64,000 bases of DNA. It comes from Eledone cirrhosa (taxonomy: Eukaryota). The stretch is taken from NCBI GenBank assembly GCA_964016885.1, contig OZ024743.1, forward strand, positions 227,354,001 to 227,418,000. Direction: 5' to 3'. The notes beneath the pieces were generated by a model. That model was not told the DNA's origin. It saw only the letters and a program-made list of their open reading frames with translations, and ran no database searches. Below are positions 2,883 through 60,429 of this stretch, piece by piece (positions within the stretch are counted from its first letter, which is position 1; every line of letters starts with the position of its first letter). Both the position numbers and the translations under genes were made by a program.

Positions 2883-4179
2883 CAGGGTGGGGCATAAAAA
2901 CTGTTACAAAATAAAATGCAAATAGTTCTTGAAAAAAATATTTATTTCAAGATCTGACTTCAACAAATAGTAAGTAATATACTATTAAACAACTGCACAA
3001 CAATTTATTTGAAATGCTTTCCTCTAACTCTCACCACCGCTGGAAGAGTTCTAGGAAAGTCTTCGATGACTGCACGAACAGTTTCTATGGGTATTTTCTC
3101 CCATACTTTATTCAGTTTTGATTTTAGAGTTTCAATATTTTGGCTAGGAGTAGAGCAGGTTTCACTCTCAAAAATTGACCATAAAGAAAAATCGAGAGGG
3201 TTGAGATCTGGTGATGTGGGAGGCCACTCTTCCTTACTGAACCATGCAGGTCTCTACACCACTGTTGTGTTATGCAAGCAGTGTGGCTCGTCGCTCCATC
3301 TTGTTGGAGAGTCCAAATGTCATCACCATAAACAGATATGCACCATGGCATCAGTGCTCCTTCCAAAATATCCTTTATGTAAAGTTCTTTGTTAATTTTA
3401 ACTCCTTGAGGCACAAAAATCAGAGGAGACTTACCTCTTTCAGAAATGGCTGCCCAACTCATCACTGATGCTGGTTTCTGTGTTCTGAACACTTTTCCTA
3501 CACTTGAAGGAATTGATTTGAGACTTTTTGCAAGTACTCGATCATTTTGATGATTGTGAGACTGCTGCACAGTGAATAACTTCTCATCTGTAAAGATGAT
3601 GTTTTGCAGCGTGCCATCCTTGATACAGTTCAATAACAGTTTACTTCTGGAGAGCCTCTTTTCAATTGTGGCTGCAGAAAGAAGCTCCCTCTTTTGGCAC
3701 TTATAGGGTGACATCCCCAGATCATTTCGACATATCCTCCGCATAGTTCTCGGCGATGTTTCTGCTTCTTCTGCCATTTTTCTCATGGACTTTCTTGGAT
3801 TACGCCTTATTTTTTCCCTCACACTTTTAACGAGTTTTGGTGTTCTTGTGGTGCGAGGGCGTCTGGATCGAGGTCTGTCTTTGATCGAGGAAGTTTCCTT
3901 AAATCGATCGATTGTCCTTTTGATCAACATTCTATTGATCTTAAGAATTTTCCCCAGTTTAAATATCTTGGGTGGAGTCAGGCCTTTTTCATGCTTCGCT
4001 ATTATGAACTTTCTTTTCAATTCTATGGACATTGTAAATTGTTAATGGAGTAATGTTCTGAAAAATAGTTAATATGGTTATAGTGCATGGATTTGATACA
4101 AATATATTAGTTATATTAGCGACATAATGTATTTTTAAATTGATTTAAAACTTTGTAACAGGAATTATGCCCCACCCTG
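2883..4179 (-). mobile_element. Tc1/mariner DNA transposon (DDxD, maT/DD37D-like), full length
   Basis: TA at 2881-2882 and 4180-4181. 28-bp TIRs: CAGGGTGGGGCATAAAAACTGTTACAAA vs CAGGGTGGGGCATAATTCCTGTTACAAA (3 mismatches). Confidence 0.95.
3005..4032 (-). pseudogene. Transposase with one frameshift near 3243
   Basis: ORF 4032-3124 has an HTH region, IIFTDEK and QQDGATSH. A shifted frame continues FSKEEWPPTSPDLNPLDFSLW...GKHFK*. The third catalytic residue is D. Confidence 0.9.
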
Positions 4180-16857: not shown

Positions 16858-16933
16858 TATATATATATATATATATGATAAAATTGGGAGAAAAATACTG
16901 CTGGTAGCACATGGATAACATGTAATAAAATAA

Positions 16934-17034
16934 GTCCCTCATCAGTGATTAGCCGACGATCATAGATATTTCATTGCATTAAAAGTCATATACCTCACGT
17001 CGGTGCAATAATAACTAAATTAAGTTATTAGGAC
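16934..17034 (-). ncRNA. Candidate rearranged hammerhead ribozyme
   Basis: rc: GTCCT|AATAACT taattt AGTTATT|ATTGCA|CCGACG tg AGGTAT-A-TGACT tttaa TGCAAT-GAA-ATATCT atgat CGTCGG ct AATCA-CTGATGA-GGGAC. Confidence 0.7.
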
Positions 17035-17447
17035 AATTAAAACGCATAAAGCGAGTGAGACAGGAAAACAACAAAGAGTAGAGCTAACCGTAGAGGAAGG
17101 AAACAAGCTTCATAGTTATTCTGTTAGCATAAGCTAGGTGAATATATGAGCGCTTAGAAAAAAGACCTTCCGCGAACGAATGCAATGTAAGAAAGAGAGA
17201 AATTGCTTTCGTTGCGAACGGGGTGAAGTGAGGAGAGGAGAAACAGTGAGTGAGTGAGTGGAAGTGTGAGGAAGAGTTAACTGTCATGACAGAGGGGGCG
17301 AAAGAAAGTAGGAGAAACAGAGAGAATGAGGGAGCAGTAAGAGAGAGAGAGAGAGAAAAAAACAGAATCGCAGTTTAGGTAAATATATGTGATAAAATGG
17401 GGAGAAAAATACTGCTGGTAGCACATGGATAACATGTAATAAAATAA

Positions 17448-17548
17448 GTCCCTCATCAGTGATTAGCCGACGATCATAGATATTTCATTGCATTAAAAAT
17501 CATATACCTCACGTCGGTGCAATAAAAACTAAATTAAGTTATTAGGAC
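17448..17548 (-). ncRNA. Candidate rearranged hammerhead ribozyme (second tandem copy)
   Basis: Same layout as 16934-17034, with a perfect stem I TGATT/AATCA. Confidence 0.72.
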
Positions 17549-17641
17549 AATTAAAACGCGTAAAGCGAGTGAGACAGGAAAACAACAAAGAGTAGAGTTA
17601 ACCGTAGAGGAAGGAAACAAGCTTCATAGTTATTCTGTTAG

Positions 17642-17867
<226 letters not shown>

Positions 17868-27491: not shown

Positions 27492-27565
27492 TCTATCGGT
27501 ATGTGTTCTATTTTTTTTCTGTTTATTTTCTTTCTCTTCGTTATCGTCTCATTTTTGTCTGTTCC

Positions 27566-27667
27566 TTCCTTAATAACATGCTGAAGTTATTAACGCACTG
27601 TGGATAGATGTTTTGTCTTTAATGCGTCGAAACATCCGAGACCCACAGCAGACAACTGAAGAGGGAA
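27566..27667 (+). ncRNA. Candidate rearranged hammerhead ribozyme (variant D)
   Basis: TTCCT|tAATAACatg ct gaaGTTATT a|ACGCA|CTGTGG at AGATGT-T-TTGTCT ttaa TGCGT c-GAA-ACATCC gagac CCACAG c AGACAA-CTGAAGA-GGGAA. Confidence 0.75.
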
Positions 27668-28255
27668 TTGTTTTATGTTTGTATTTCCCTTACATTTCTA
27701 AACACACTTTATTAGTAACCACACAGCACCCTTTAAATTCTTATTAATCTATTGCTGGGAATCCGTTCTCTCTATCTTTCTTGTTGTTGTTATGCCGGTC
27801 TACCATTTGGTCCTACCATTTGCAGTCCTACCATTTGGAATAATTCTTTTCCTTCCTCGTTTCTTCCTCTTTCTCTTTCTCTCTCTCTCCCACTCACATG
27901 TTGTCCTCTCTCTCAGGCTCTCCCACTCATTTACCCTCTTTCCCTCCCACTATCTATACCCTTTCTCCCCCCTCTCTCTCTCTGCTCCCTAACTTCTTCC
28001 GTTTCCCTTCGTCTCTCCCTCTTTACGTCTGTTCTCGCTAAGATCAGATGGGTTTATCTTGGCTGTCTCTCATGCTGTTAATAAGGTCTCAGGTCGTACA
28101 AACGGCCGTTTTTTAAACTTCTTCCTCTCGCCCCATGATTACTACTACATACATGTACTACTGTCTCGTGTCTCCCCAGTCTATCGGTATGTTTTATCTT
28201 TTTTTCTTCTGTTCATTTTCTTTCTCATCGCTATGGTCTCTTCTTTGTCTTTTCC

Positions 28256-28352
28256 TTCCCGAATAACTTCCTGAAGTTATTAACGCACTGTTGATAGATG
28301 TGTTGTCATCAATGCGTCGAAACAACCTGAAGCAGACAACTGAAGAGGGGAA
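28256..28352 (+). ncRNA. Decayed second copy of rearranged hammerhead D
   Basis: Core blocks are retained, but there is a deletion in the CCACAG helix and a G at the cleavage position. Confidence 0.55.
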
Positions 28353-28542
28353 TTGTCTTATTTTGGTGTTTCTTACAGTTGTAAACACTATATACATACA
28401 TACATACACATCTTCCTTATGATTTCTCCCTGATGAAACAGTCCTAGTCCTGTAGAAGCCATCACTATATTAAATATTTATATACTGCTATGTACTGGGT
28501 ACCTTATTTACTGTGGCTACCCCCGATTGAACTCGAGATAAA

Positions 28543-29055: not shown

Positions 29056-29520
29056 TTAATTTTGGTCGGAGTTCATTGCCTCTGTGATTTGTCTAAACAT
29101 TGCGTCTTTTCTGTGTGTAGATTTTATTTTCATTTCTATTTTCTCTAATTTGTCCTTATGTTCTATTTTAGCATGTTGGTGGAGTATTGATGATTCTTTT
29201 TTATCTTGAAGCTCTCGCCAGTGTTCATTTAACCGTTCTCCTATCCTACGAGCTGCCTCACCTATGTACAGTATATTCTTATCTTTACATTGTCCTTCAG
29301 TACATCTTATGCTATATACTACATTTCTAGTTTTACAGTTAATATGGGGGATTAGTTTACAGCTTATGCATTTCTTATCTATACAGGGAGGTCTTTGAAA
29401 AGGGTATGTATTACTAATAAGTGTTTTTATGGAGGTACCTGGTCTTTCTACTATCTTAATATTAAGTTTAAGTTTATCTAGGGCCCTTCTAAATTTGTGA
29501 GCTAATTCAACCCCTAGAGG
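29056..29520 (-). pseudogene. PLE GIY-YIG endonuclease C-terminus with Cys-rich linker
   Basis: PPCIDKKCISC...NCKTRNVVYSIRC...LYIGEAARRIGERLNEH...SSILHQH...DAMFRQITEAM. A frameshifted mirror copy lies on + at ~29520-29970. Confidence 0.88.
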
Positions 29521-30211
29521 TGAATTAGCGTACAAATTTAGAAGGGCCCTAGATAAGCTTAACTTAATATTAAGATAGTAGAAAGACCAGGTACCTCCAT
29601 AAAAACACATTATTAATACATACCCTTTTCAAAGACCTCCCTGTATAGATAAGAAATGCATAATCTGTAAACTAAGCCCCCATATTAACTGTAAAACTAG
29701 AAATGTAGTATATAGCATATACTACAATGTAAATATAAGAATATTGTGTACATAGGTGAGACAGCTCGTAGTATAGGAGAACGGTTAAATGAACACTGGC
29801 GAGAGCTTCAAGATAGTAAAGAATCATCTGTACTCCACCAACATGCTAAAATAGAACATAAGGGCAAATTAAAGAAAATAGAAATAAAAATAAAATCTAC
29901 ACAGAAAAGACGCAATGTTTAGACAAATCAGAGGCAATAAACATAAATGAACTCCAACCAAAATTAAATAGAAAAGATGAATGGACTAGCAACATCACAA
30001 CTTACAATTAAGGACAAAATGAAAACACACACACACACATAGAATAAACAAGCAAACAGTAACATGTAAATAAACAAATAAATAAACAAATAAAAACACA
30101 CACAGACACCCGGATGTAACACATGCGCAAACTAAGCACACAACACACACAAAAACAAGATGGCGTAGGACAGAACAAAGGAGAGGCACAAAACAAAGAA
30201 AATAATCCCCA

Positions 30212-30254
30212 GTCACTGAAGAGGTCATAGAATATGTGACGAAAAAACTTTGAC
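30212..30254 (+). ncRNA. Minimal type-I hammerhead
   Basis: GTCA-CTGAAGA-GGTCATAGAATATGTGAC-GAAA-AAAC-TT-TGAC, downstream of the GIY-YIG stop. Confidence 0.7.
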
Positions 30255-31357: not shown

Positions 31358-34300
31358 ATGGCTAACATAACCCCATCTCCCTCACCACTCCCTGCGCCTC
31401 CAACCCATCTCTTCCACCCACCAAACGAAATCCAAAACTTCAGAATTGGTACCATGAATGCAGGCACTTTAAAAAGTCGCTCTAACGAGGTTGTAGAGTT
31501 GCTTGAACGTAAGGAAGTTGATGTTTGTTGCGTCCAAGATACTAGGTGGAGTGGTGGGTCTGCGAGATTCATTGTGGGTAAAAAAACGATGCTATAAACT
31601 TTTCTGGGTGGGAAATGAAAACGGGCTGGGTGGAGTAGGAATTATGTTAGCTGAAAAATGGGTAGATAAGGTAATTGACGTAAATAGAGTGAACGACAGA
31701 ATAATCAAAATAAGACTTGTCCTAAATAGAACTACAGTGACAATAATATCTGCTTACGCACCCCAATCTGGACTGACAGGCGTTATAAAAGACAGATTTT
31801 ATGAGTCGCTAATGCTCACTACCTCCCAACTAACCAACATTGACTACATAATTATTGCTGGCGACCTAAATGGTCATGTTGGATAACATTGTGACGACTA
31901 TGACGGAATCCATGGAGGCTACGGGTTTGGCACCAGAAATGAGGAAGGTTTCAGAATCCTGGAATTCTGTGACGCTAATAACCTAACTATCTGTAACACA
32001 GACGTTAAAAAATGAGACAATCACTTGATCACCTATAGATCAGGGGAACACGCAAGTCAGATAGATTATATCCTTACCAGAAGACGTGACAAAGTGCCTG
32101 TTGTAAACACTAAATCCCTCCCCCGTGAAGAATGCACCTCCCAAAATAGCCTCATAGTTAGTGACCTCATAGTCAGGACGAGACGTACACGACAACAGAG
32201 GAGGACTACCCTGAGAAGAAGAATATGGAAGTTAAAGGACCGCACAGCCAGTAACAAATTTAAAAGCATATTACATGATGTTTTTGACAGTAAGGAAGAG
32301 CAATTAGAGACGTACAGTATAAAGGAACAGTGGGAATTTCTGAAGGTTAACCTGCTGAAGGCGACAGATGAAATCTGTGGATGGAGCAGACCTATAGGCA
32401 GGAGGAGAGTAATATGGTGGTGGAACAGTAAGGTGGAGGAGTCAATCAAGGCCAAAAGGCAAGCTTGGAAAGTATGGCGGAATGGGGGAAGTAGAGAACA
32501 CTATCAAGTGGTCAGCAGGGAAGCTAGGAGACAAGTGTACTTTCCAATAAGGAAGCAGAGGAAAGTAAGTTCAAGCATGTTCTACCACGCGAGGACCAAA
32601 AACGTGAGGTGTTGAGGATTGCTAGACACTGTGTCAAGGAAAACCGTGATATTGTCAGGGAGAAGTGTGTCCGTAATGATGATGGTATACTTGCTATTAC
32701 TGATACTGATAAGAAGGTAGCTTGGAAGTGTCACTACGAGAGGCTAATAAATGAGGAGAATAAGTGGGAAAAAAATAGTCTGCCCCAAATCGATCCAATA
32801 GAGGGACCAGCAGTGCAAGTTAAAGGTAGTATAATAAATAAGGCAATCAAAGATATGAAGACAGGCAAAGCAGCTGGACCTTCGAAGATAGTTGCTGAAA
32901 TGCTGACACCATCTGGAACGGTGGTACAAACTATGGTCACCCGGATAGTAAACCAAGTCTAAAGGATGGGGTCGTACCAAAGGACTGGCGTAGCAGCATC
33001 ATCATTAACTGCTACAAGGGTAAAGGAGATGCCCTAGATAGGGAAAACTATAGAGGCATTAAATTAATTGACCAGGTCATGAAGGTCACAGAAAGAGTTA
33101 TAGCGCAACTAATCTGAGAGCCAATTGATCTAGATATAATGCAGTTTGGGTTTGTGTCAGGTAAAAGTACCACAGACGCTCTTTTCCTTGTACGACAACT
33201 ATAGGAGAAGTACCTAGCTAAAAGTAAACCCCTATACTTAGCTTTTGTTGACTTGAAGAAAGCCTTTGACAGAGTCCCCGGCTCCATTATCTGATGAGCT
33301 CTTAGAAAACTAGATGTTGATGAATGGGCTTGTGAGAGCTATACAAACCATGGATAAAAACACAGTCAGCAAGGTTAGAATTAACAACGAAAATAGTGAA
33401 GAATTTAGCGTAACAGTTGGAGTTCATCAGGGCTCTGGCCTTAGCCCCCTCCTATTTATTATTGTCCTTCAGGCTATAACAGAGGAGTTCAAGACCGGCT
33501 GCCCATGGGAATTTCTATATGCAGATGATCTAACGCTCATAGCTGAATCAATGGCTGAACTAGAGAAGAAATTCCAAACATGGAAGCATGGCCTAGAATC
33601 AAAAGGCCTTAAAATTAACTTGTCTAAGACTAAATTTCTAGTATGTAGGAAGGAAAATAGGGTACTGGTGCCCTCTGGGAAATGCCCATGCTCAGTGTGT
33701 AGGAAAGGAGTAGGCAGAAACTCCATTTTATGTCCCAAATGCAAAGTATGGGTGCATAAAACATGTAGTAGGATCACAGGTAAGCTAACTAAGAACATAG
33801 ATTTTATATGTGGCCGGTGCTCAAGTGCAATAATTAGCACGTGCCCACAGGATACTAGCTCATTCCATTGCCCAGATGGTTCTATAGAAATATAGGACAC
33901 CTTCCGTTACCTGGGTCACAAATCAGCAGTGGTGGAGGGTGCTCTGAAAATACAGTAGCCAGAGTCAGAACGGGATGGAAAAAGTTCAGAGAGCTTATAC
34001 CACTATTGGCCGCTAAAGGTATCTATCTTAAAATGAAAGGCAGACTGTATGATGCCTGCATACACACAGGAATGTTATATGGCAGTAAGACATGGGCATT
34101 ATGTGCAGAGGTTATATGCAGACTGGAAAGGAACGAAGCTTGCATGCTCCGTTGGATGTGTAATAGTAATATACGTGAACGGCAAAGCATAAATGAACTA
34201 AGTGAGAAATTAGGAATAAGAGGGATCAGATGCTGTTTACTCGAGAGAAGACTACGTTGGTATGGTCATGTGATGCGCATGAAATACGGTCAACTGTATA

Positions 34301-34867
34301 AAAAAGTGCAGGGCGATCAAAGTTGATGGAAGCTACGGAGTAGGCAGACCCAGAAAAACCTGAGACGATTTGATAAATTCCGACCTTACACACTTACACC
34401 TCTCCAAGACAATGTCACTGGACCGAGATCTTTGGCGCTACACAGAAATACAGAAGACCCTCCTTGCCTAAGTACAAAGCGAAATCTACAATCAGTAGGC
34501 ACCTCTTAACCAAAAATATACCCCCATCACACTACCCCTACCCCCACCCCCATCCTCACCACCCCTTTCTCTGTAAAGTTATGTTGGTACCACAACATCC
34601 AGTCCTAAATAAAGGAGGTCGTGTAGGTGTCACGACAAAAAAAAACACAGTCCACGCTGTAATGTGGCCGTGTAGGTAACACGGTAAAAATCTCCCAATT
34701 CACACTGTAAATGTGGTTGGTATTAGGAAGCGCACCCAGCCGTAGAAAACCTGCCAGGCAGTCCTATACGAGCAATACAACCAATCTAGCCTGAAGTAGG
34801 ACAATTCCCGTCTAAACCCATGCTAGCGTGGAAGATAGAATTTAAACGATGATGATGATGATGATGA

Positions 34868-37032: not shown

Positions 37033-38632
37033 CTAAGGCGGGTAAAATTCCCGAGATCCATGGACGAGTTCTCTCCAGCGGTCTCTGTCCCTCATTATCG
37101 CTGCCATGTCCTGCGTCTCCAATAGACCAGTGTCTGTCCTTAGGGCATCAACATACGTTAACCTTGGTCTTCCTCTTCTAGTGTGTCCATGTAGGGGCTC
37201 CCAAAGGAGGACTGAGTGCAATGTCAACTCTGGATGTCAGTGAGCATGTCCAGCTAACCTCAGTCTCCTCTGTGTCACTTTTGAGCTGACTTTTGGGATG
37301 CTCCCATACCGCTCTGAGTTTTTCATCCTCAGTGTATACTGATTAATGTTCAGAGCCATCCTCAGCATTCTCGTGTAGCACCCATCCACCATCTGAGTAA
37401 GTTTCTTGGTCAGTGTCCAAGTCTCAGACCCATACAGCAGCACAGACTCCACTACAGCAATGAAGAGGCGGATTTTCAGGTCTCTACGAAGGACCGACTT
37501 CCACACCGATCTCAAGCTGTGGCACGCCGCCCAGGCCTTGCTCTTCCTCTCAACCACATCATCTTCCGTATTCCCAATCTTTGCTCCCAAATACAGGAAG
37601 CCCTCAACCAATTCTAGCGGCTTCCCGCTTACATTAGTGATCCCCTCTGGCTTCTCAACATTCTCTACCAGATATTTTGTTTTAGTCTTATTCATTCTCA
37701 GCCCCACACTCATCGACACAGTCTCAACCTCCCGCATCAAATCCTCTGCCTCCTTCACTGTATTTGTCACCAAAACTATGACGTCGGCAAATTCAGCATC
37801 CGATACCTTTTTCGCCCTAACTCTCCTGCTCTGAGCCGGTTCCACAGTAAAGCCAGAGTCCTGGTGTTTCTCCAGTGCAAGGCGCATACAATAGTCCACT
37901 ACGATGATAAAAAGGTAGGGAGCCAATGTATCTCCCTGGAGCACTACAGCCAGTATCTCAAAGAACTCTGTCATCCCATCAGGTGTAATGACTTGGGCTT
38001 TGGTGTTGGTGTAGAGCAGTGATATCAGGTCCACTATCTTCTTGGGGATTCCATAAGCCTGTAAGATCTTCATCAGGCAGTAACGGTCCACAGAATCAAA
38101 GGCCTTCCTAAAGTCAATGAAAACCATGACTGCAGGAAGGCACTTTGCTCTAGCTCCCTCTAATATCCTCCTCAGCATCAGGATGTGACTGGTGGTTGAT
38201 CTACCCCCTCTGAAGCCGTTCTGGTTGTCCCTGAGCTTCTACTCCATCTCAGGCTGGATCCTGTTAAGAATCATCCTGTTGAGGGTCTTTGCCACAAGTG
38301 ACGTCAGTGAGATCCCCCTGTAGTTGTTGGTGTTAGAGAGATCTCCCTTCTTTGGCACTGGGACGATGTTACTGATCATCCACTGATTCGGGGCAACTCC
38401 TCTCTCCAGTGCCCCGTTACAGAACCCCAGGATGATATCATCAAAATCACACCTCTTCATCACCTCTGATGCCACTCCATCTTCTCCATGAGCCTTGCCC
38501 TCCTTGATCCTCTTCTTGGCTCTCTGAAGCTCCTCTCTGGTGAAGTGCTCTGTCTCAACATCCAGTTCCTCAAACAGCCACCTGATCTCCCCAGTGCTCT
38601 GGGCTGTGGAGGCTGGCTCTCCTAGTATGGTC
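37033..38632 (-). mobile_element. 5'-truncated non-LTR retrotransposon (RTE-group RT)
   Basis: PVPKKGDLSNTNNYRGISL, FIDFRKAFDSV, LQGDTLAPYLF, EFADVI, VLLYGSETWTLT, RRLRLAGH, RGRPRLTYVD; internal stop and frameshift. Confidence 0.93.
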
Positions 38633-39371
38633 CTAAAGAGGTATAAGTAAACAACCGAATATATCTTACGGTGACGGGTCAACAAGTGGGGGGCCAAAAT
38701 ACTAAAGAAACTACCACGAAATAATAATTCAGAGTCCCGAGACCAGTACGAAATAAAGGTTTCTATCCCAGGCACAAGGCCAGCAACCACCCAGTGCTAA
38801 TAAAAATAAACTAATACGAAATAATAATTCAGAATCCCGAAAAAGAATACTAATACTATACCTAAGGGTGCCACCACGATACAAAATTCTAGTGCAAACT
38901 ACATAAATGCTCGTACGAAGTATATGTAAAATTTGATACGGAAAATTAATTCAGAATCCCCCCACCCCCCACCCCAAAAAAAGAATAATAAATAAATAAA
39001 TACTGATATACGAGAAATTAAAGCAAAGATACCACTAAGAAATATAGAAAGCACGGAAAAGGGGCAGCCATCGGATAAGAAGGCAAGTATCCGGGGTCTA
39101 ACACATCTGCTATAAAAAGCGGAGTCGGCCAAATCTATCATAGAATAGGGGAAGGGGTGGGGGTACTGAGACTACAAAGGACCGAGGGGCTGCTTCGGGT
39201 GGGCGAGAAAGTAAAAGACGACGACAAAGAGAGAGGACTGGGGTGGAAGGACTAGGGAGGGATGGGGGGAAGAAGGAAATATAGAGGAAGCGATAAAAGG
39301 ATATAAAAGAAGATCTACCTTTGCAAGCAGGGGTTACCCATTACAAAATCGGCAAGTGGGGTGTTATAGTC

Positions 39372-40030
39372 CTAGTCAACCCCCCGGGTCATTATGGGGT
39401 TGATGTCGAGGTAAGTCCTACGCAATCTGTGTTTACATGCAGTTACCAGTTCATCTTTCTTGTTTAGGAGTTGGTCCGTCGAAAACAGCATTTGTAAAGT
39501 TTCCTCCGAGCATAAATTGCACGGACGGCGTCCTCCCGTGTAAGAGTTGGCTCTGAACAGTAAGCTCCAAGTCAGATCATAGGTAATATTGTTATCCTTG
39601 AGGTCCCATATGTGGCCCGAAAGTGTCGTGGCGTGACGCCGGGCCGGGTTTCGGAAGGTATGTCTGTGTTGGCATAGCCGGGTCTTGAAGTCACATGCGG
39701 TTAATCCTATATAAGCTTTGTTGGAGGTGTCCGTCCTCACGTTGCACTGGTAGATCACATTACGATATCTGCATCTGTTGTCGAGGGGGCAAATGGATCC
39801 ATCAGGACAGTTTCACCTCCTGGTCGGCTCTCCACTGCTATTTAGGTTATTTCTTCCATAGGGCTTGAGTTTTTTGTTGCTAGAGGAGACGATGTTTTGT
39901 GCAAAGTTTGGTGTGGTGCTGTAGGAGAGTTTGATGGTATTTTTGTTAATTATGTTGTGGTAGCGGTGTTGTAGTGGGAAGTGTTTTTCAATGAGCCTAA
40001 AGAAGATTTTCCCGATAGGAGTTGTCACTT
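39372..40030 (-). pseudogene. PLE GIY-YIG endonuclease fragment, minus arm
   Basis: NVIYQCNV...AYIGLTACDFKTR...TTLSGHIWDLK...CNLCSEE...LNKKDELVTACKH. Confidence 0.88.
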
Positions 40031-40039
40031 CGGAGGAGG

Positions 40040-40483
40040 TGCAACTGTCCTGATGGATCCATTTGCTCCCTCGACAACAGATGCAGAGATCGTAATGTGA
40101 TCTACCAGTGCAACGTGAGGACGGACACCTCCAACAAAGCTTATATAGGATTAACCGCATGTGACTTCAAGGCCCGGCTATACCAACACAGACATACCTT
40201 CCGAAACCCGGCCCGGCGTCACGCCACGACACTTTCGGGCCACATATGGGACCTCAAGGATAACAATATTACCTATGATCTCACTTGGAGCTTACTATCC
40301 AGAGCCAACTCTTACACGGGAGGACGCCGTCCGTGCAATTTATGCTCGGAGGAAACTTTACAAATGTTGTTTTCGACGGACCAACTCCTAAACAAGAAAG
40401 ATGAACTGGTAACTGCATGTAAACACAGATTGCGTAGGACTTACCTCGCACTCAAACCCCATAATGACCCGGGGCGGGGGTAG
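40040..40483 (+). pseudogene. PLE GIY-YIG endonuclease fragment, plus arm
   Basis: CNCPDGSICSLDNRC...VIY...YIGLT...CNLC...CKH. Confidence 0.88.
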
Positions 40484-41620
40484 ACTAGGGCTATAACACC
40501 CCACTTGCCGATTTTGTAATGGGTAACCCCTGCCTGCAAAGGTAGATCTTCTTTTATATCCTTTTATCGCTTCCTCTATATTTCCTTCTTCCCCCCATCC
40601 CTCCCTAGTCCTTCCACCCCAGTCTTCTCTCTTTGTCGTCCTCCTTTTACTTTCTCGCCCACTCGAGGCAGCCCCTCGGTCCTTTGTAGTCTCAGTACGC
40701 CCACCCCCTTCCCCTATTCTATGATAGATTTGGCCGACTCCGCTTTTTATAGCAGATGTGTTAGACCCCGGATACTAGCCTTCTTATCCGATGGCTGCCC
40801 CTTTTCCGTGGTGTCTATATTTCTTAGTGGTATCTTTGCTTTAATTTCTCGTATATCAGTATTTTTTTTTTTTTTTTTAGGGGGGGGAGGGGGGATTCGG
40901 AATTAATTTTCCGCATCAAATTTTACATATACTTCGTACGAGCATTTATGTAGTTTGCACTAGAATTTTTGTATCGTGGCGGCACCCTTAGAGATAGTAT
41001 TAGTATTCTTTTTCGGGATTCTGAATTATTATTTCGTATTAGTTTATTTTTTTTAGCACTGGGTGGTTGCTGGCCTTGTGCCTGGGGTAGAAACCTTTAT
41101 TTCGTACTGGTCTCGGGACTCTGAATTATTATTTCGTGGTAGTTTCTTTAGTATTTTGGCCCCCCACTTGTTGACCCGTCACCGTAAGATATATTCGGTT
41201 GTTTACTTATACCTCTTAAAAGGGTCTCATTATAATTCCGTCCCACCTAGTAAACCTTTCTTTAGTCTAGCAGTACCAGTGAGAGACTTGATAGCTGTCC
41301 TTAGGTTATAGTAACCAGAAATTGTTTTTTTCATTTAATTGTTTTTTAACACTCCCGGTTTTTTTTCTATATATTTACCCCATATTGTTTTACTTATTGT
41401 TTCGACCCCCCCCCCCCCAGTATCTTCTTTGACCTCCTTCCCAGCTGTGGTTGGCACTATCAACGCACGACTGGGTTTCCACCACCCGCTCTCCCTATTT
41501 CTTTTACTGGCACGTTCAGCTACCCCCTCCCGCCACAAATTGCCATGATAGAATTATTATGTCTCAACAACAAACTTTTGACCAATCCTTGTGACAATCA
41601 CTTTTACCATATATGGAATT

Positions 41621-41863: not shown

Positions 41864-42043
41864 GGATATGTGTTCCTTCACGCACAAGGCGCTAAGGTAC
41901 GCATGTATTGTCCAACCAAATGCCAGTGTGGTTCAATGGCAGGTTAATAAATTAACGAGCCAGAACAAATATAAACAAGGTTTAGCAAATAATGAAAAAG
42001 TTTCAAAATAAATTTAAAAAAATTGACTTTACCTACTATAGTT

Positions 42044-42126
42044 ACCTTTACCGATCGGTTTCGAATCCCAAAAATAAACGGAGACCATACGGCCTTCGTT
42101 GCAAAGAAAGATTCTCGTCAGAAGGT
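42044..42126 (-). ncRNA. Type-I hammerhead, intact (family A)
   Basis: Reverse complement of 42700-42782. Confidence 0.9.
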
Positions 42127-42699
42127 TCTTTTCATTCGAAGAATATAAAATTCCTGAATTTAAATTACGAACTAGCGCTATCAAAACTGTTCCTGGGATG
42201 AGAGTGGATGATGTAGAAACAGGTTTATCAAGGGCCGAAGTAAAGATAGGGGCAGAAGGAGGTAGGTCAAACCAGCCGCAGCTATCACTAGCAGCAGTCG
42301 GAGCGACCAAATTTGTTCTCAACTTAGAGGAGTTAGTAATAATAGGATATGTGTTCCTTCACGCACAAGGCGCTAAGGTACGCATGTATTGTCCAACCAA
42401 ATGCCAGTGTGGTTCAAACTGGCATTTGGTTGGACAATACATGCGTACCTTAGCGCCTTGTGCGTGATGGAACACATATCCTATTATTACTAACTCCTCT
42501 AAGTTGAGAACAAATTTGGTCGCTCCGACTGCTGCTAGTGATAGCTGCGGCTGGTTTGACCTACCTCCTTCTGCCTCTATCTTTACTTCGGCCCTTGATA
42601 AACCTGTTTCTACATCATCCACTCTCATCCCAGGAACAGTTTTGATAGCGCTAGTTCGTAATTTAAATTCAGGAATTTTATATTCTTCGAATGAAAAGA

Positions 42700-42782
42700 A
42701 CCTTCTGACGAGAATCTTTCTTTGCAACGAAGGCCGTATGGTCTCCGTTTATTTTTGGGATTCGAAACCGATCGGTAAAGGT
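42700..42782 (+). ncRNA. Type-I hammerhead, intact (family A)
   Basis: ACCTT-CTGACGA-GAATCTT...GGGATTC-GAAA-CCGATCGG-TA-AAGGT; GUA cleavage site. Confidence 0.92.
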
Positions 42783-42849
42783 AACTATAGTAGGTAAAGT
42801 CAATTTTTTTAAATTTATTTTGAAACTTTTTCATTGTTTGCTAAACCTT

Positions 42850-42877
<28 letters not shown>

Positions 42878-48224: not shown

Positions 48225-48326
48225 GTCCTTCGTCAGTGATCTTCCAACCATCACAGGTATTTCTTTGCTTTAAAGACCATATACCTCCGGTTGGTGCGAG
48301 CAACGGCTAAAAAAAGTCGTTGGGAC
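48225..48326 (-). ncRNA. Candidate rearranged hammerhead (variant B), intact core
   Basis: rc GTCCC|AACGACT...AGCCGTT g|CTCGCA|CCAACC gg AGGTAT-A-TGGTCTT taa AGCAAA-GAA-ATACCT gtgat GGTTGG AAGATCA-CTGACGA-AGGAC. Confidence 0.7.
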
Positions 48327-48835: not shown

Positions 48836-48937
48836 GTCCCAACGACTTTTTTTAACCGTTGCTCGCACCAACCGGGGGTATATGGTCTTTAAAGCGAAGT
48901 AATACCTGTGATGGTTGGAAGATCACTGACGAAGGAC
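48836..48937 (+). ncRNA. Candidate rearranged hammerhead (variant B), GAAA mutated to GTAA
   Basis: Mirror copy of 48225-48326; stem II is TCGC/GCGA. Confidence 0.62.
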
Positions 48938-53746: not shown

Positions 53747-53780
<34 letters not shown>

Positions 53781-53784
<4 letters not shown>

Positions 53785-53898
53785 AATATAGGAAGAAGGA
53801 TACTGCGTAGTTGCACATGGGTTACATATTATAAAATTAGTCCCTCATCAGTGATTTACCAACCGTCATTGGTATTTCATCGCATTAAAAATCATATA
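53781..53898 (-). ncRNA. 5'-truncated rearranged-hammerhead element
   Basis: rc (TAT)A-TGATTTttaa TGCGAT-GAA-ATACCa atgac GGTTGG t AAATCA-CTGATGA-GGGAC, plus the family C/B tail. Confidence 0.65.
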
Positions 53899-55819: not shown

Positions 55820-56322
55820 CAAATAAGAAAAAGTTTCAAAATAAATTTCAAAAATTCACTGTACTTACTATGGTTACCTTTACCGAATCGGTTTCGAGTC
55901 TCAAAAATAAATGGATAGTCCTTGCGGGCTTCCATTGAAAAGATAAACTCTCGTCAGAAGGTTCTTTTCACTCGGAGAATATAAAATTCGAGTTCAAATT
56001 ACGAACTGGCGCTATTCAAAATTGTTCCCGAATGAGAATGAATGATGTGGAAGCAATTCTGTCCAGTGCCGTGTGCAAAGATAGAAGGCAGAGGCAGGGA
56101 GGTCAATCTACTACCACTTTAAATAGCAGCAGTCAAAACGACCAAAATTCATCTCGACCAAGAGGAGATTAATAATAATAAAGTATATATCCCTACACGC
56201 AAAAAGCGTATAGGGACACATGTATTGTCCAACCATATGCAAATGTGGTTCAATGGCAGGTTAATAAATTAACGAGCCAGAACATATATAAGCAAGGTTT
56301 AGCAAATAAGAAAAAGTTTCAA
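55820..56322 (-). mobile_element. Family A: one diverged 483-bp monomer with 20-bp terminal redundancy
   Basis: CAAATAAGAAAAAGTTTCAA at 55820-55839 and 56303-56322. Collinear with the 41861-42341 unit but starting at a different point. Confidence 0.88.
55876..55962 (-). ncRNA. Type-I hammerhead, intact (family A variant)
   Basis: rc ACCTT-CTGACGA-GAGTTT...AGACTC-GAAA-CCGATTCGG-TA-AAGGT; compensatory A-U to G-C change in stem II. Confidence 0.88.
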
Positions 56323-56559: not shown

Positions 56560-58335
56560 TACTTTTTTAGTAGCCACAAGGGCGCACAAGAAAAGGGGAC
56601 AATACAGAGACATGCCGGGGATTTTACATACAGTCGTGTAAAAAATATAAAAACAAACAATTATAAAAATTGAAATCCCCAATAGGGTGGAGGCGCCACA
56701 AAATGGGTTGTTTAATACCCCGTAGATAGAACAACCCTCAACTTCAGGAGCACGTTGTGCAAGTGTTCCTTTCTTCCTTTTGCTCTCTTCTTCAACCTAC
56801 AGGTTTATAAACAGAGAAGGCCCAATCACTCGGGCCATTTTTTCAACATTCACCCACCTTTCAGTAAATTTACTGGGGTGCAGTGCCTCTCTCTCCACTC
56901 TGATTCTCCTTCTAAAGTGGTACCTAAAGAAGAGAATGAGTCCGGAGAGAGAAGCATCTGTCCTCAGTCCTCTCAATCTCGTCCACCATATAACCTCTTT
57001 CACCATAGCCACTATACAGAGCAAAACCGCCCCTCTTTCGTTTTTGAAAGAAGTTGGCGGTTTGATCCTTACTATAGACTCGGCAGTCAACTAGATTTGT
57101 CCCATACGCGACAGCAGTTGTTCTGCGTAGTTCCACAGGCTGGTTACGCCCGGGCAGTGTACAATTGCGTGCAAGACAGTTTCAATGTCCTACCCGCATC
57201 TTGGACACGTCCTCTTGGAAAGATCCCAGTCGGAACGTCCGTGCCTGTAGATCTTGTCACGAACTGGTAGAGCTCCTCGGTAGCCCTGCCAGGCCAGGGA
57301 CCTCTGGAAGTTGTCCATAGGTCCCGGACGGAAAGTCCGACCAAACAGACTGGTGAGTTCGTCGTCTTCGACATCTAGAGTCTCTCCGAGCAGGTCGCCG
57401 CCCTTGTGACGTACTTACCCTCCATAGAATGTCGAAGTGGAGTTTCCACTGATTGCTGAGCCCGCTTGACAGAGGATTGTGAGCGCTTGAGCGCATTCAA
57501 TGTGCCAGGCGCCCATCTTCTTAGGTCTCCGCTTGACCCAGGACTGCAGCTCCGTCAGCGAGACAAGTTGCGTGCGGGAAAGCCTGTCTCACAAACCGGT
57601 TGGGGGTCGGTGAGGAATACCTGTAGATGCTGTAGCCTCAGCGCATGTTTGCGCATCATCAGCCACGTTATTCCCAGCCCTCCGTTGGAAGGGTGCTGAC
57701 AGCAGACGGATCTCCTCACCAGTGGCGCCTGCTTCTTCCAAAGGAACTGGAAGAGCATGCGTTCCATCTTGGTGAGGTGTTCACGGGGACAAGGTATGAC
57801 GGTCAAGTAGTAGATGACGGACGCTATGAAAATGTTCGCCACCTCCGCTCGACCTTTCAAGGATAGTTTGCACTCTGCCCACTTCTGGGTGAGAGCAAGC
57901 ACCTTGGCCGTGACCTCGTTCCAGTTTTTCTCCACCTGGAGGTCCGGACCGAACCAGACCCCGAGCAATTTCACCGGTCCGTCCGTTCAGCCTCCGACTA
58001 CGCTGTTGGACGGCATCGGTTTTCCTCTCCACATTCCGAGTTGTAAACCGACAGACTTGTCCGGGTTCAGTTTTGCTCCTGTGAAACTTTCGTATTCCTG
58101 CAGTAAGTTGCGATCGCCCCGATTTCCGAGGTTTCCGACAACATTACTCTCACGCCGTCGTCAAAAGCCGACGCCGCTTTCCGCAGTCCCGGTTCCAACG
58201 GGATGCCCTGCAGCAGCTCCAACTTTCGCAGTAGTGCTCTAGAGTCAGTACGTACAGAATGGAGGAGTGAGGTCATCCCTGTCGGACGGAACGCGTGATT
58301 GCGAACGGCTCCGATCCGTAGCCATTCACCTTGAC
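56560..58335 (-). mobile_element. Tx1/L1-clade LINE 3' fragment, internally deleted
   Basis: KLLGVWFG, LSLKGRAEVANIFIASVIYY, FQFLWK...CQHPSNGGLG, a C-terminal Cys region and a 3' UTR abutting (GA)n/(GATA). Confidence 0.88.
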
Positions 58336-58349
58336 CATCGATAAATAGA

Positions 58350-59528
58350 TATGTTTCTTTATTAGACACAGGGGCACAAAAGAAGAGGACAAATACAAAG
58401 GGGGAAGTTTACATACAAGAAAAGCGTGTAAAATGTTATCACAAATGCAATTTAAAAAATTAGTCGATTTTCCCCAATAGGGGGAGACAGTTTATATGGG
58501 TAACACATACCCCCGAAAAATTGTGCAACCCTCAACTCCAGGAGTACGAAGAGTTTGTACTCCTTTCCTCTCCTCCTCCTTTTCCTTAACCTACATTCTC
58601 GCCCCTTTCACCCACCTTTCATAAAACTTGCTGGGATACAGCACCTCTCTCTCCATCTTGATTCTTCTTCCAAAGTGGTATTTGAAAAAAAGAATCAGTT
58701 GTTGGCCGGAGAGAAAGGTGTCTGACCTCAGCCTTTCAACCTTGTCCACCATACAACCTCTTTCGCCATAGCTATCACACAAAGGAAAACCGCCTCTCCT
58801 TCGTTTTTGTAGGAGGGTGGCGGTTTGATCATGACAATGGACTCGATGGTCAACCGGATTGGTCCCACCCACGACAATAATCGTTCTACATAGCCCCACA
58901 GGTCAGTGACGCCCGGGCAGTGGATGAATGCATGCTCGACGGTTTCTTCGTCTCGCACGTACCTCGGACATATCTTTTTTGCAGGGTCCCTTCCCGGTCG
59001 CCCATGTCTGTAGAGCTTGTCTCGAACTGGTAGAGCTCCTCGGTAGCACTGCCAAACCAGGGACTTTTGGAAGTTGTCCATCGGTCCCGGGCGGAAGGTC
59101 CTACCGAACAGACTGGCCAGTTCATCTTCCTCTACGCCTAGAGTTTCACCGAGCGCGTCGTCGCACTTGCTGCGGATCAACTCTCTATAGAATGACGAAG
59201 TGGAGTCTCCACTGATCGCCGGGTCCGCCTGCCAGAGGGTTGTGAGCGCCTGAGCACATTCGATGTGCCAGTCGCCCATTTTCCTCGGTCCTTGCTTGAC
59301 CCAGGACTGCAGCTCGGTCAGCGAGACGAGTCGTGGGAAGGGTCGCCTCACGAACGGGGCCCACACCGGTTGTCCGGTGAGGAATACGTAGAGATGCCGC
59401 AGCCTGAGCGCGTGTTTGCGCATCGTCAGCCACGGCATCCCCAGTCCTCCGTTAGAAGGGTGTTGGCAGCAGATGGATCTTCTCACCAAAGGAGCCCGCC
59501 TCTTCCAAAGGAATTGGAAGAGGCGCAT
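58350..59528 (-). mobile_element. Second Tx1/L1-clade LINE 3' fragment
   Basis: ORF 58728-59528: LFQFLWK...NGGLGMP...ALPVRDKL...CPRY...ETVEHAFIHCP; a diverged paralogue of the adjacent copy. Confidence 0.9.
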
Positions 59529-60429
59529 CGATAGATAGATAGATAGATAGGCATACAGGTAGACAGACAGACGGATAGATAGATTGATAGATAAATGGGT
59601 AGACAGAGAGATAAAAAGAATGATAGATAGATTGATGGGAAAATAGAGATATGGAAATATAGATATAGATAACTAGGTAAATAAATAGAGAGACAGACAG
59701 ATAGACAGCTAGCTAGATGGATGGAAAAATAGATAGATATATTGACTGACTGATAGACACCTAGATAGATAGTTAGATAAGTAGATAGATCGATACTTTA
59801 TGAATGACAACTGACAACAGTCATCAAACTGGCACACACTCTAACGGCTAAATTGACATCAATTCATATGTATATGAATTAATGTTGGCTGACTAACAAC
59901 TGTTAGACAGATTTAAATATATTTATATGCGTGAGTGTGTACGGGTGTATATACATATATAAATGTGTGTGTATGTGTGTATGTGTGTGTACGGGTTTAT
60001 ATGCGTATACAAATATGTGTGAGTGTGCGTGACGGATGTGTGTGAAGGTCTGTCTATATACATATACTATGGACTTTCGCATTATTTTCGTTTACAAAAT
60101 TTGACACAGTGTATTGCTTTATACACATAAGTCTATAATACAGAACGCCTGTACAATGTGCCACGCATTGCAATCAGACTCCGCCAGTTTATAAACAATC
60201 AAGGAGGGTCAGTTAATATAACTAACAATGTTTCATAGTTGAACACTGACTGACAAGCAGTCACCGAAACATCAGAATGTCTGGAGAGACAACTTGTGAA
60301 TGCTTCCCCGCTTGTTTAATTGACAAACATAAATCCAAAATATTGGCTGCCCAAATTGTTGTGCAATCAATGATTAAATATATATATATATATATCGCTT
60401 GGGTGAACAGACAAATTTTACTGGCTGGG

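Follow-up and report, generated by a model that had tools for sequence, protein, structure and literature searches.

Results

The window, by which we mean the whole 64-kb stretch of DNA analysed here, contains seven loci that share one layout of helices, and their coordinates, strands and helices are all as an earlier note on this DNA had given them (Table 1). A descriptor with 53 places matched five of the seven, against 0.00 expected from 100 shuffles. In the copy at 27566, pairing extends to 5/5 positions of stem III, 6/6 of stem I, 6/6 of helix X and 5/5 of stem II, and the site reads GUU, where the usual site in the family is GUA. The copies at 17448 and 16934 are near intact, with stem I paired at 5/6 and 4/6 positions, respectively. 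Only three of the five stem II pairs are present in the copy at 48225, in which A10.1 faces A11.1, and the copy at 48836 carries a changed A13. The copy at 28256 is predicted to be dead because of the loss before X' and the G at position 17. Finally, the motif at 53840-53898 (minus strand) is without its 5' half and starts within a few bases of the cut site. Three of the seven copies look competent, catalysis being predicted from their sequences. When the window was scanned with Rfam, no hammerhead appeared among the best 150 of 219 matches at E<=1, and the Rfam entries among the matches listed were microsatellite-driven microRNA matches only.

Table 1. Features of the rewired hammerhead and its host elements in the window.
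Feature	Position	Strand	Remarks
Rewired hammerhead, subfamily A	27566..27667	+	every helix paired
P0, 5' strand	27566..27570	+	partner 27664-27667, or 27663-27667 in shifted register
Hairpin arm of four-way junction	27571..27592	+	not seen in subfamily F
Displaced outer strand of stem II	27593..27597	+	partner 27623-27627; 79.5% paired, not selected for
Helix X, 5' strand	27598..27603	+	partner 27643-27648; two-sided changes at 6/6 pairs
Non-bulged strand of kink-turn-like motif (3n,2n,1n)	27604..27606	+	U at 2n in subfamily A; GA in most others
Block S	27607..27618	+	stem III strand, U16.1, H17 at 27612, predicted cut 27612/27613, stem I strand
Block G	27623..27636	+	stem II inner strand, C11.1, GAAA 27629-27632, stem III strand
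Bulged strand of kink-turn-like motif	27637..27642	+	three-base bulge, GA, 3b
Block C	27650..27663	+	stem I strand, CUGAAGA 27656-27662, G10.1 at 27663
Second subfamily A copy, decayed	28256..28352	+	5 nt lost before X', G at position 17
Host element, subfamily A	27492..28389	+	two partial tandem units, motifs 690 nt apart, between (TA)n runs
Host element, subfamily B	16860..17646	-	514-nt tandem unit
Subfamily B motifs	17448-17548; 16934-17034	-	cuts 17503/17502 and 16989/16988
Host element, subfamily C1	48208..49008	.	back-to-back inverted copies; motifs 48225-48326 (-) and 48836-48937 (+, A13U)
5'-truncated copy, commonest subfamily	53764..53898	-	starts beside predicted cut 53895/53894

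The alignment gives the strand order P0-hairpin-II-X-kink-III-site-I-linker-II'-GAAA-III'-kink'-X'-I'-CUGANGA-P0'. In hammerhead numbering, P0 and the hairpin come first and are followed by the outer stem II strand, X, three bases, stem III (which carries U16.1 and H17), stem I and the linker; the chain then continues with the inner stem II strand, N11.1, GAAA, stem III, a three-base bulge, GA plus one base, X', one base, I', CUGANGA, N10.1 and P0'. The elements of a hammerhead core are all present, namely CUGANGA, GAAA and a UH flanked by stems I and III, and the linker between stems I and II reads UUAA in 68 of 71 intact copies. Unlike types I-III, which have the cyclic order S>C>G and no core pseudoknot, the family has the order S>G>C (cleavage strand, GAAA, CUGANGA), as the earlier note had proposed. 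The outer stem II strand and helix X, which bridges stems I and II, sit upstream of the cleavage strand, and the chain opens in P0, an additional helix at the base of stem II. The alignment thereby supports the description of a scrambled hammerhead in which A9 is followed by an additional junction. Most copies have G-C, G-U or A-U at 10.1:11.1, and R10.1-Y11.1 is kept in 86 of 100 unselected matches and in 29/39 aligned copies across subfamilies, the register of the junction being uncertain because 10.1 pairs better within P0 in some subfamilies.

Nested folding of seven copies recovered P0, the hairpin and some of X, III and II; the core never formed, as expected because of its pseudoknots. 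In the nested fold of the 27566 copy, U17 lengthens stem III over GAAA. For 12 of the 13 copies scored, the helix energies add up to ~11-26 kcal/mol more than the nested minimum, and because these sums ignore loop costs and a decayed subfamily F copy fails, they are set aside as evidence.

The genome-wide collection of copies that the earlier note had proposed was made with the pattern GAAA-N7-GA-N14-CTGANGAR, the 3' half of the layout, which has 22,273 matches in the 2,996-Mb assembly against 225 for the reversed pattern. Since decayed copies escape the pattern this figure is a lower bound, and the family amounts to ~22,000 copies in a 3.0-Gb genome. A filter of at least 13 of 17 pairs in III, I and X was passed by 193 distinct copies, 181 of them in the standard register; removal of named truncated loci and redundancy left 42, and three more truncated or deleted copies were dropped to give 39. 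In this alignment 88.3% of cells pair, compared with 68.7% after shuffling and 30-46% when slid, and two-sided changes occur at 19 of 23 pairs, so that the claim of helices differing in sequence yet still pairing holds across the family. Pairing in III, I and X had been a condition for entry among these 39 copies, and their relatedness means that the covariation counts are not independent events. Stem II, on which there was no selection, is 79.5% paired with two-sided changes at 3/5 pairs, and helix X is 89.7% paired with such changes at all six. Among the first 100 unselected matches, which include truncated copies and chance matches, at least 4/5 pairs of III are present in 81, at least 5/6 of I in 83, at least 5/6 of X in 74 and at least 4/5 of II in 72. 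CUGANGA and GAAA were part of the search pattern, whereas U16.1 and H17 were not; U16.1-A15.1 is found in 37/39 copies, and position 17 is never G in 71/71 intact copies, a sample unselected on that position.

There are at least eight subfamilies, among which helix sequences differ and spacing is kept, with subfamily E two bases shorter than the standard. Subfamily E (L141, L147, L194, L219) has a longer hairpin, a shorter linker and stem II, and Watson-Crick pairs in place of the kink-turn G.A, and it offers a natural control for the kink hypothesis. Subfamily F (L203, L206, L208-L210, L217, L402, L403) is older, has a CUGAGGA core and keeps the kink-turn sequence; in its old copies, judged by eye, the P0 strand appears adjacent to stem II with no hairpin, in an apparent three-way junction. 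L400 (tandem, 549 nt) and L401 belong to two unrelated repeat families that share the spacing of GAAA and CUGANGA; they were excluded, the helices being absent. Outside the genome, the bare pattern gave at least 118 metagenome and 17 viral matches, none with the helices, in collections with few animal genomes. The repeat is also found in independent public contigs; four contig sets of one study span the unit, with no joints among them, and no RNA run is listed among the sequencing runs that contain the repeat. It is barely credible, and already largely refuted, that a repeat simply happens to hold these motifs by chance or artefact. The relatedness of the copies, which makes the counts non-independent, leaves some room for this, but every helix shows two-sided changes between subfamilies, the 135 metagenome and viral bare-pattern matches reach at most 16/22 pairs, and the repeat recurs in the independent contigs.

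In the loop between X and III, which had been described as 2 nt facing 5 nt, a kink-turn-like motif had been overlooked. One strand has a three-base bulge and then GA, and the opposite, unselected strand has GA in 67 of 71 intact copies; C-G at -1b/-1n closes stem III in 66/71. The commonest 3b/3n pair is U.U (30/71 intact copies) and the commonest bulge is AAU (34/71), which we take to be that of the U4 kink-turn. The sequence of a standard kink-turn, with three-base bulge, G.A and A.G, is present in 67/71 intact copies, is absent from subfamily E and is non-standard in A. Subfamily B has the standard G.A, A.G, U.U sequence. Subfamily F keeps the kink-turn sequence despite its different helix sequences, the search pattern having made no requirement for GA, and subfamily E has Watson-Crick pairs at the G.A positions and keeps the bulge alone. 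The X-III loop fits the standard kink-turn definition in the available text of PMC5061560, where the U that subfamily A has at 2n is among the known non-standard variants. As in standard kink-turns (U4, box C/D), a three-base bulge is combined with G.A and A.G pairs and C-G at -1b/-1n; unlike them, the motif lies inside a hammerhead, for which a literature search found no printed precedent. The X-III loop reads as a kink-turn, with folding and protein binding predicted. U4 and box C/D kink-turns are reported to need protein to fold (Huang and Lilley 2016, PMC5061560).

Except where a long microsatellite separates them, neighbouring motifs lie 432-816 nt apart in head-to-tail orientation. The units have no ORF in common, and one locus holds at least five complete units. 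L390 (G000:C6:48385000-48394000) has at least ten C1 units at ~635-nt spacing that are 92-96% alike. Copies end in (TA)n at two preferred 3' points, ~14 and ~54-65 nt after the core; these two ends, ~40-50 nt apart, resemble a Penelope tail, and an inverted partial copy is frequent on the 5' side. In published animal non-LTR retrozymes the hammerhead is of type I, as were the descriptors that detected them, and their circular RNA has been demonstrated, according to the accessible parts of PMC7229834 and 10.64898/2026.07.22.740005. Like them, as far as they are described there, our units are non-coding head-to-tail repeats with one hammerhead per unit, dispersed at high copy, with GC <45% in most units and ties to Penelope-like elements; unlike them, the family has a hammerhead that is not type I, and any circular RNA of it is predicted. 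The units would thus be classed as non-autonomous retrozyme-like repeats with Penelope-like hallmarks that fail the type I test.

Targets of (TA)n or AT-rich sequence, tandem and inverted copies and two 3' ends are described for Penelope-like elements in the available text of Craig 2021 (PMC8557442) and Frangieh 2024 (PMC11167929). Penelope-like pseudo-LTRs share all of these with our units, and differ from them in that the units are without an RT or endonuclease ORF and carry a hammerhead that is not type I. It is therefore conceivable that the units are detached pseudo-LTRs of an autonomous Penelope-like element, perhaps of a clade thought to be hammerhead-free, as the same (TA)n target, the inverted 5' duplications and the two-site tail would suggest. 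Naiad elements with half cores 35-50 nt apart, matching no descriptor in the accessible text of Craig 2021 (PMC8557442), point the same way. We nonetheless consider such an origin distinctly unlikely. Penelope-like protein fragments occur in 30 of 251 loci, but none was seen joined to the motif as its own terminal repeat or running directly into it, with flanks of 1-5 kb and few queries, and arrays of at least five head-to-tail units have no ORF between motifs. An autonomous partner (RT + GIY-YIG ORF bounded by ribozyme pseudo-LTRs) was not found in the 251 loci, with the same flanks and few protein queries, and a homologue search for it with a window fragment returned nothing.

Some copies carry possible traces of cleavage at the predicted scissile bond. 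Eighteen copies carry 1-8 extra bases exactly at this bond; by eye, 11 of the inserts duplicate neighbouring bases and seven do not (GAAA, AAAA, AAGG, AAUAAA, seven A, CAC and AC), five of the seven being at least half A. A control gap shifted by two bases gave eight rows, all duplications and two of them shared with the first list, so that non-duplication inserts number seven at the site against none in the control (p=0.016). These inserts are compatible with a cleaved 3' end that was tailed before ligation or a template jump, and, being exact to the site, they may serve as indirect evidence for cleavage in vivo. Inverted (snap-back) junctions start at the site in L096, L161, L188 and L398. 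A hand count of breaks among 100 of 202 matches listed, the 202 copies having been chosen for a changed base 11 nt upstream, gave 36 in the five positions at the site against 11 in the next five, an excess of 5' ends that is confounded by TATA microhomology with the target.

Some observations weigh against cleavage. Most copies read straight through the site, and uncleaved or re-ligated RNA must therefore be the usual template. Subfamily C1 has spread with A opposite A at 10.1/11.1, and its A13 is changed in 19 of 100 copies among the matches listed (11 T, 4 C, 4 G), whereas four adenines nearby show 2 changes in 348 site readings (p about 1e-11 versus A13). Neighbouring C1 tandem units differ at A13 (window 48836-48937, plus strand; L387, L388, L062, L053, L389); recurrent misreading of a single template base would look like this. 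A13 is altered in 93 copies of the larger subfamilies (49 T, 34 G and 10 C, counted by hand) against ~5,100 estimated unchanged, or ~2%. Two explanations offer themselves, a preference for inactive templates or misreading of a modified base by the enzyme, the second drawing on what is known of m1A.

Discussion

The best explanation of these data, to which we assign a probability of roughly 0.7, would be a working self-cleaving hammerhead with a new wiring, carried by non-autonomous retrozyme-like repeats. That it is a real, active ribozyme, with monomer and dimer counted together, appears highly probable from the sequences. A ribozyme with the same S>G>C block order cleaves in vitro, and the published SGC-1 cleaved during transcription (PMC10085705). 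This order defines type-SGC (HRIMA-1 and its variant), which is known from metatranscriptomes only as far as the available text of Eckert 2023 (PMC10085705) goes. The topology that the earlier note had suspected to be new was thus in part already published, namely in its order; what is new, on our reading of the wiring, is where the chain opens and how X joins stem III. A literature search of mainly non-subscription sources turned up neither an account of this wiring nor a report of animal DNA encoding hammerheads in the SGC order.

Type-SGC, as far as its published description is available, and the family have in common the S>G>C order, two core pseudoknots, a linker of 3-4 nt from stem I to stem II, and a helix joining the strand before I' with the strand after stem II. 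Helix X is the equivalent of the type-SGC I-II interaction helix. The type-SGC descriptor, in the accessible text, requires stem II to be completed by the strand after CUGAUGAG, and in our reading of the same source the SGC-1 strand after the core forms stem II and then the interaction strand (PMC10085705). In the family, by contrast, the strand after CUGANGA does not complete stem II, the II and X strands have moved 5' and are joined to III by the kink-turn-like motif, and the chain opens at the base of stem II, in P0. The comparison with the published rearranged hammerhead that the earlier note had suggested went against a match, as 0/100 copies fit the type-SGC descriptor. A canonical SGC stem II was likewise rejected: none of 100 copies passes even with a relaxed core, and it is 42% paired, no better than shuffles. 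Since the two-part II+X strand lies 5' of the cleavage strand, the chain corresponds to an SGC molecule whose original ends have been joined and whose new ends lie at position 10, within block C. The family would behave like a type-SGC hammerhead, yet it fails the SGC stem II test. It further differs from the metatranscriptomic type-SGC examples, so far as these are described, in sitting in animal chromosomal DNA at ~22,000 copies.

We propose that one RNA folds into a normal hammerhead core, in which X would tie together the far ends of stems I and II and be continuous with stem III. The kink-turn would fold X back and let the ring close, since a 50-degree kink would turn X toward stems I and II, and the chain ends would exit via P0 at the base of stem II, where three or four helices would meet. 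Transcripts of the tandem units could then be cut once per unit after AUA, AUC, GUA or GUU, and the monomers might sometimes be tailed and rejoined, or circularised. A Penelope-like enzyme may reverse-transcribe the monomers in trans, with insertion into (TA)n.

Alternatively, the core might form only in trans, from two copies head to tail, so that blocks S and G would come from one copy and block C plus the stem II strand from its partner. The geometry favours this arrangement. In a monomer, III-core-II-X-III closes on itself as a ring, and in the crystal structure a long distance separates the distal ends of stem III and the interaction helix, a problem flagged as unresolved in the available text of Eckert 2023 (PMC10085705). 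The units are tandem, subfamily E has a plain three-base bulge, and minimal Penelope hammerheads are reported to cleave as dimers (PMC6765202). The stems of the family, however, are full length rather than minimal, and the kink-turn sits exactly at the III-X joint, where a monomer needs it. In addition, in our reading of the accessible text of PMC10085705, the co-transcriptionally cleaving SGC-1 has III' running almost directly into the interaction strand. A core restricted to trans assembly therefore appears improbable.

It is very unlikely, in our view, that the retroelement retains the fold for protein binding or as a packaging signal and that catalysis is vestigial or selected against. Such a role would accommodate the amplification of C1 with A10.1/A11.1 and frequent A13 changes, the read-through of the site in most copies, and the observation that hammerhead mutants of a purified anole Penelope-like element are unimpaired in in vitro insertion, as given in the available text of Frangieh 2024 (PMC11167929). 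It does not account for the persistence of the catalytic bases, U16.1 and a non-G position 17 across subfamilies with turned-over helices, nor for non-templated inserts at the scissile bond.

More speculatively, the self-cleaving hammerhead could be part of a protein-gated ribozyme retroelement, in which the kink-turn would fold only with host 15.5K/Snu13 and thereby switch on a hammerhead whose four-strand wiring would be undescribed so far. A modified A13 would be a second switch, recorded as RT misreads (19% in C1), and similar scrambled hammerheads may be those missing from Penelope-like clades. We regard this scenario as unlikely in its entirety, but a kink-turn-dependent hammerhead would be a natural protein-responsive switch.

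With ~22,000 copies, the family puts an SGC-order ribozyme in an animal genome. Its wiring breaks the assumption, found in the available text of Eckert 2023 (PMC10085705), that CUGANGA and its stem II strand are one uninterruptible block, and the kink-turn would be a concrete answer to the geometry problem left open in that text. A further implication is that whole families escape surveys for retrozymes and Penelope elements when these use type I descriptors.

A KCNQ-type channel exon precedes one subfamily A copy (L009:1036-1161) by ~340 nt on its strand; given this position the copy is probably intronic, and its cleavage there could affect the host transcript. The exon fits an animal source, KCNQ channels being animal-specific, as do the LINE reverse transcriptases, Tc3-type transposase and GIY-YIG fragment of the window. 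The window contains further CUGANGA motifs at 30216 (+), 28813 (-), 16392 (-), 6509 (+) and 5491 (-), which are type I hammerhead remnants by eye; the 28813/30216 pair flanks a GIY-YIG fragment (29056-29628, minus strand) inside inverted repeats. A 443-nt near-perfect palindrome at 41969-42857 carries another CUGACGA family, with a third copy at 55957 (-). Nested inverted repeats at 38636-41217 hold two mirror-image endonuclease-like ORF ends (39372-39812 and 40019-40483) with no Pfam match. Pieces of a Tc3-type transposase and of several LINE reverse transcriptases lie at 3124-4041 (-), 31497-34326 (+), 37237-38796 (-) and 57555-59672 (-).
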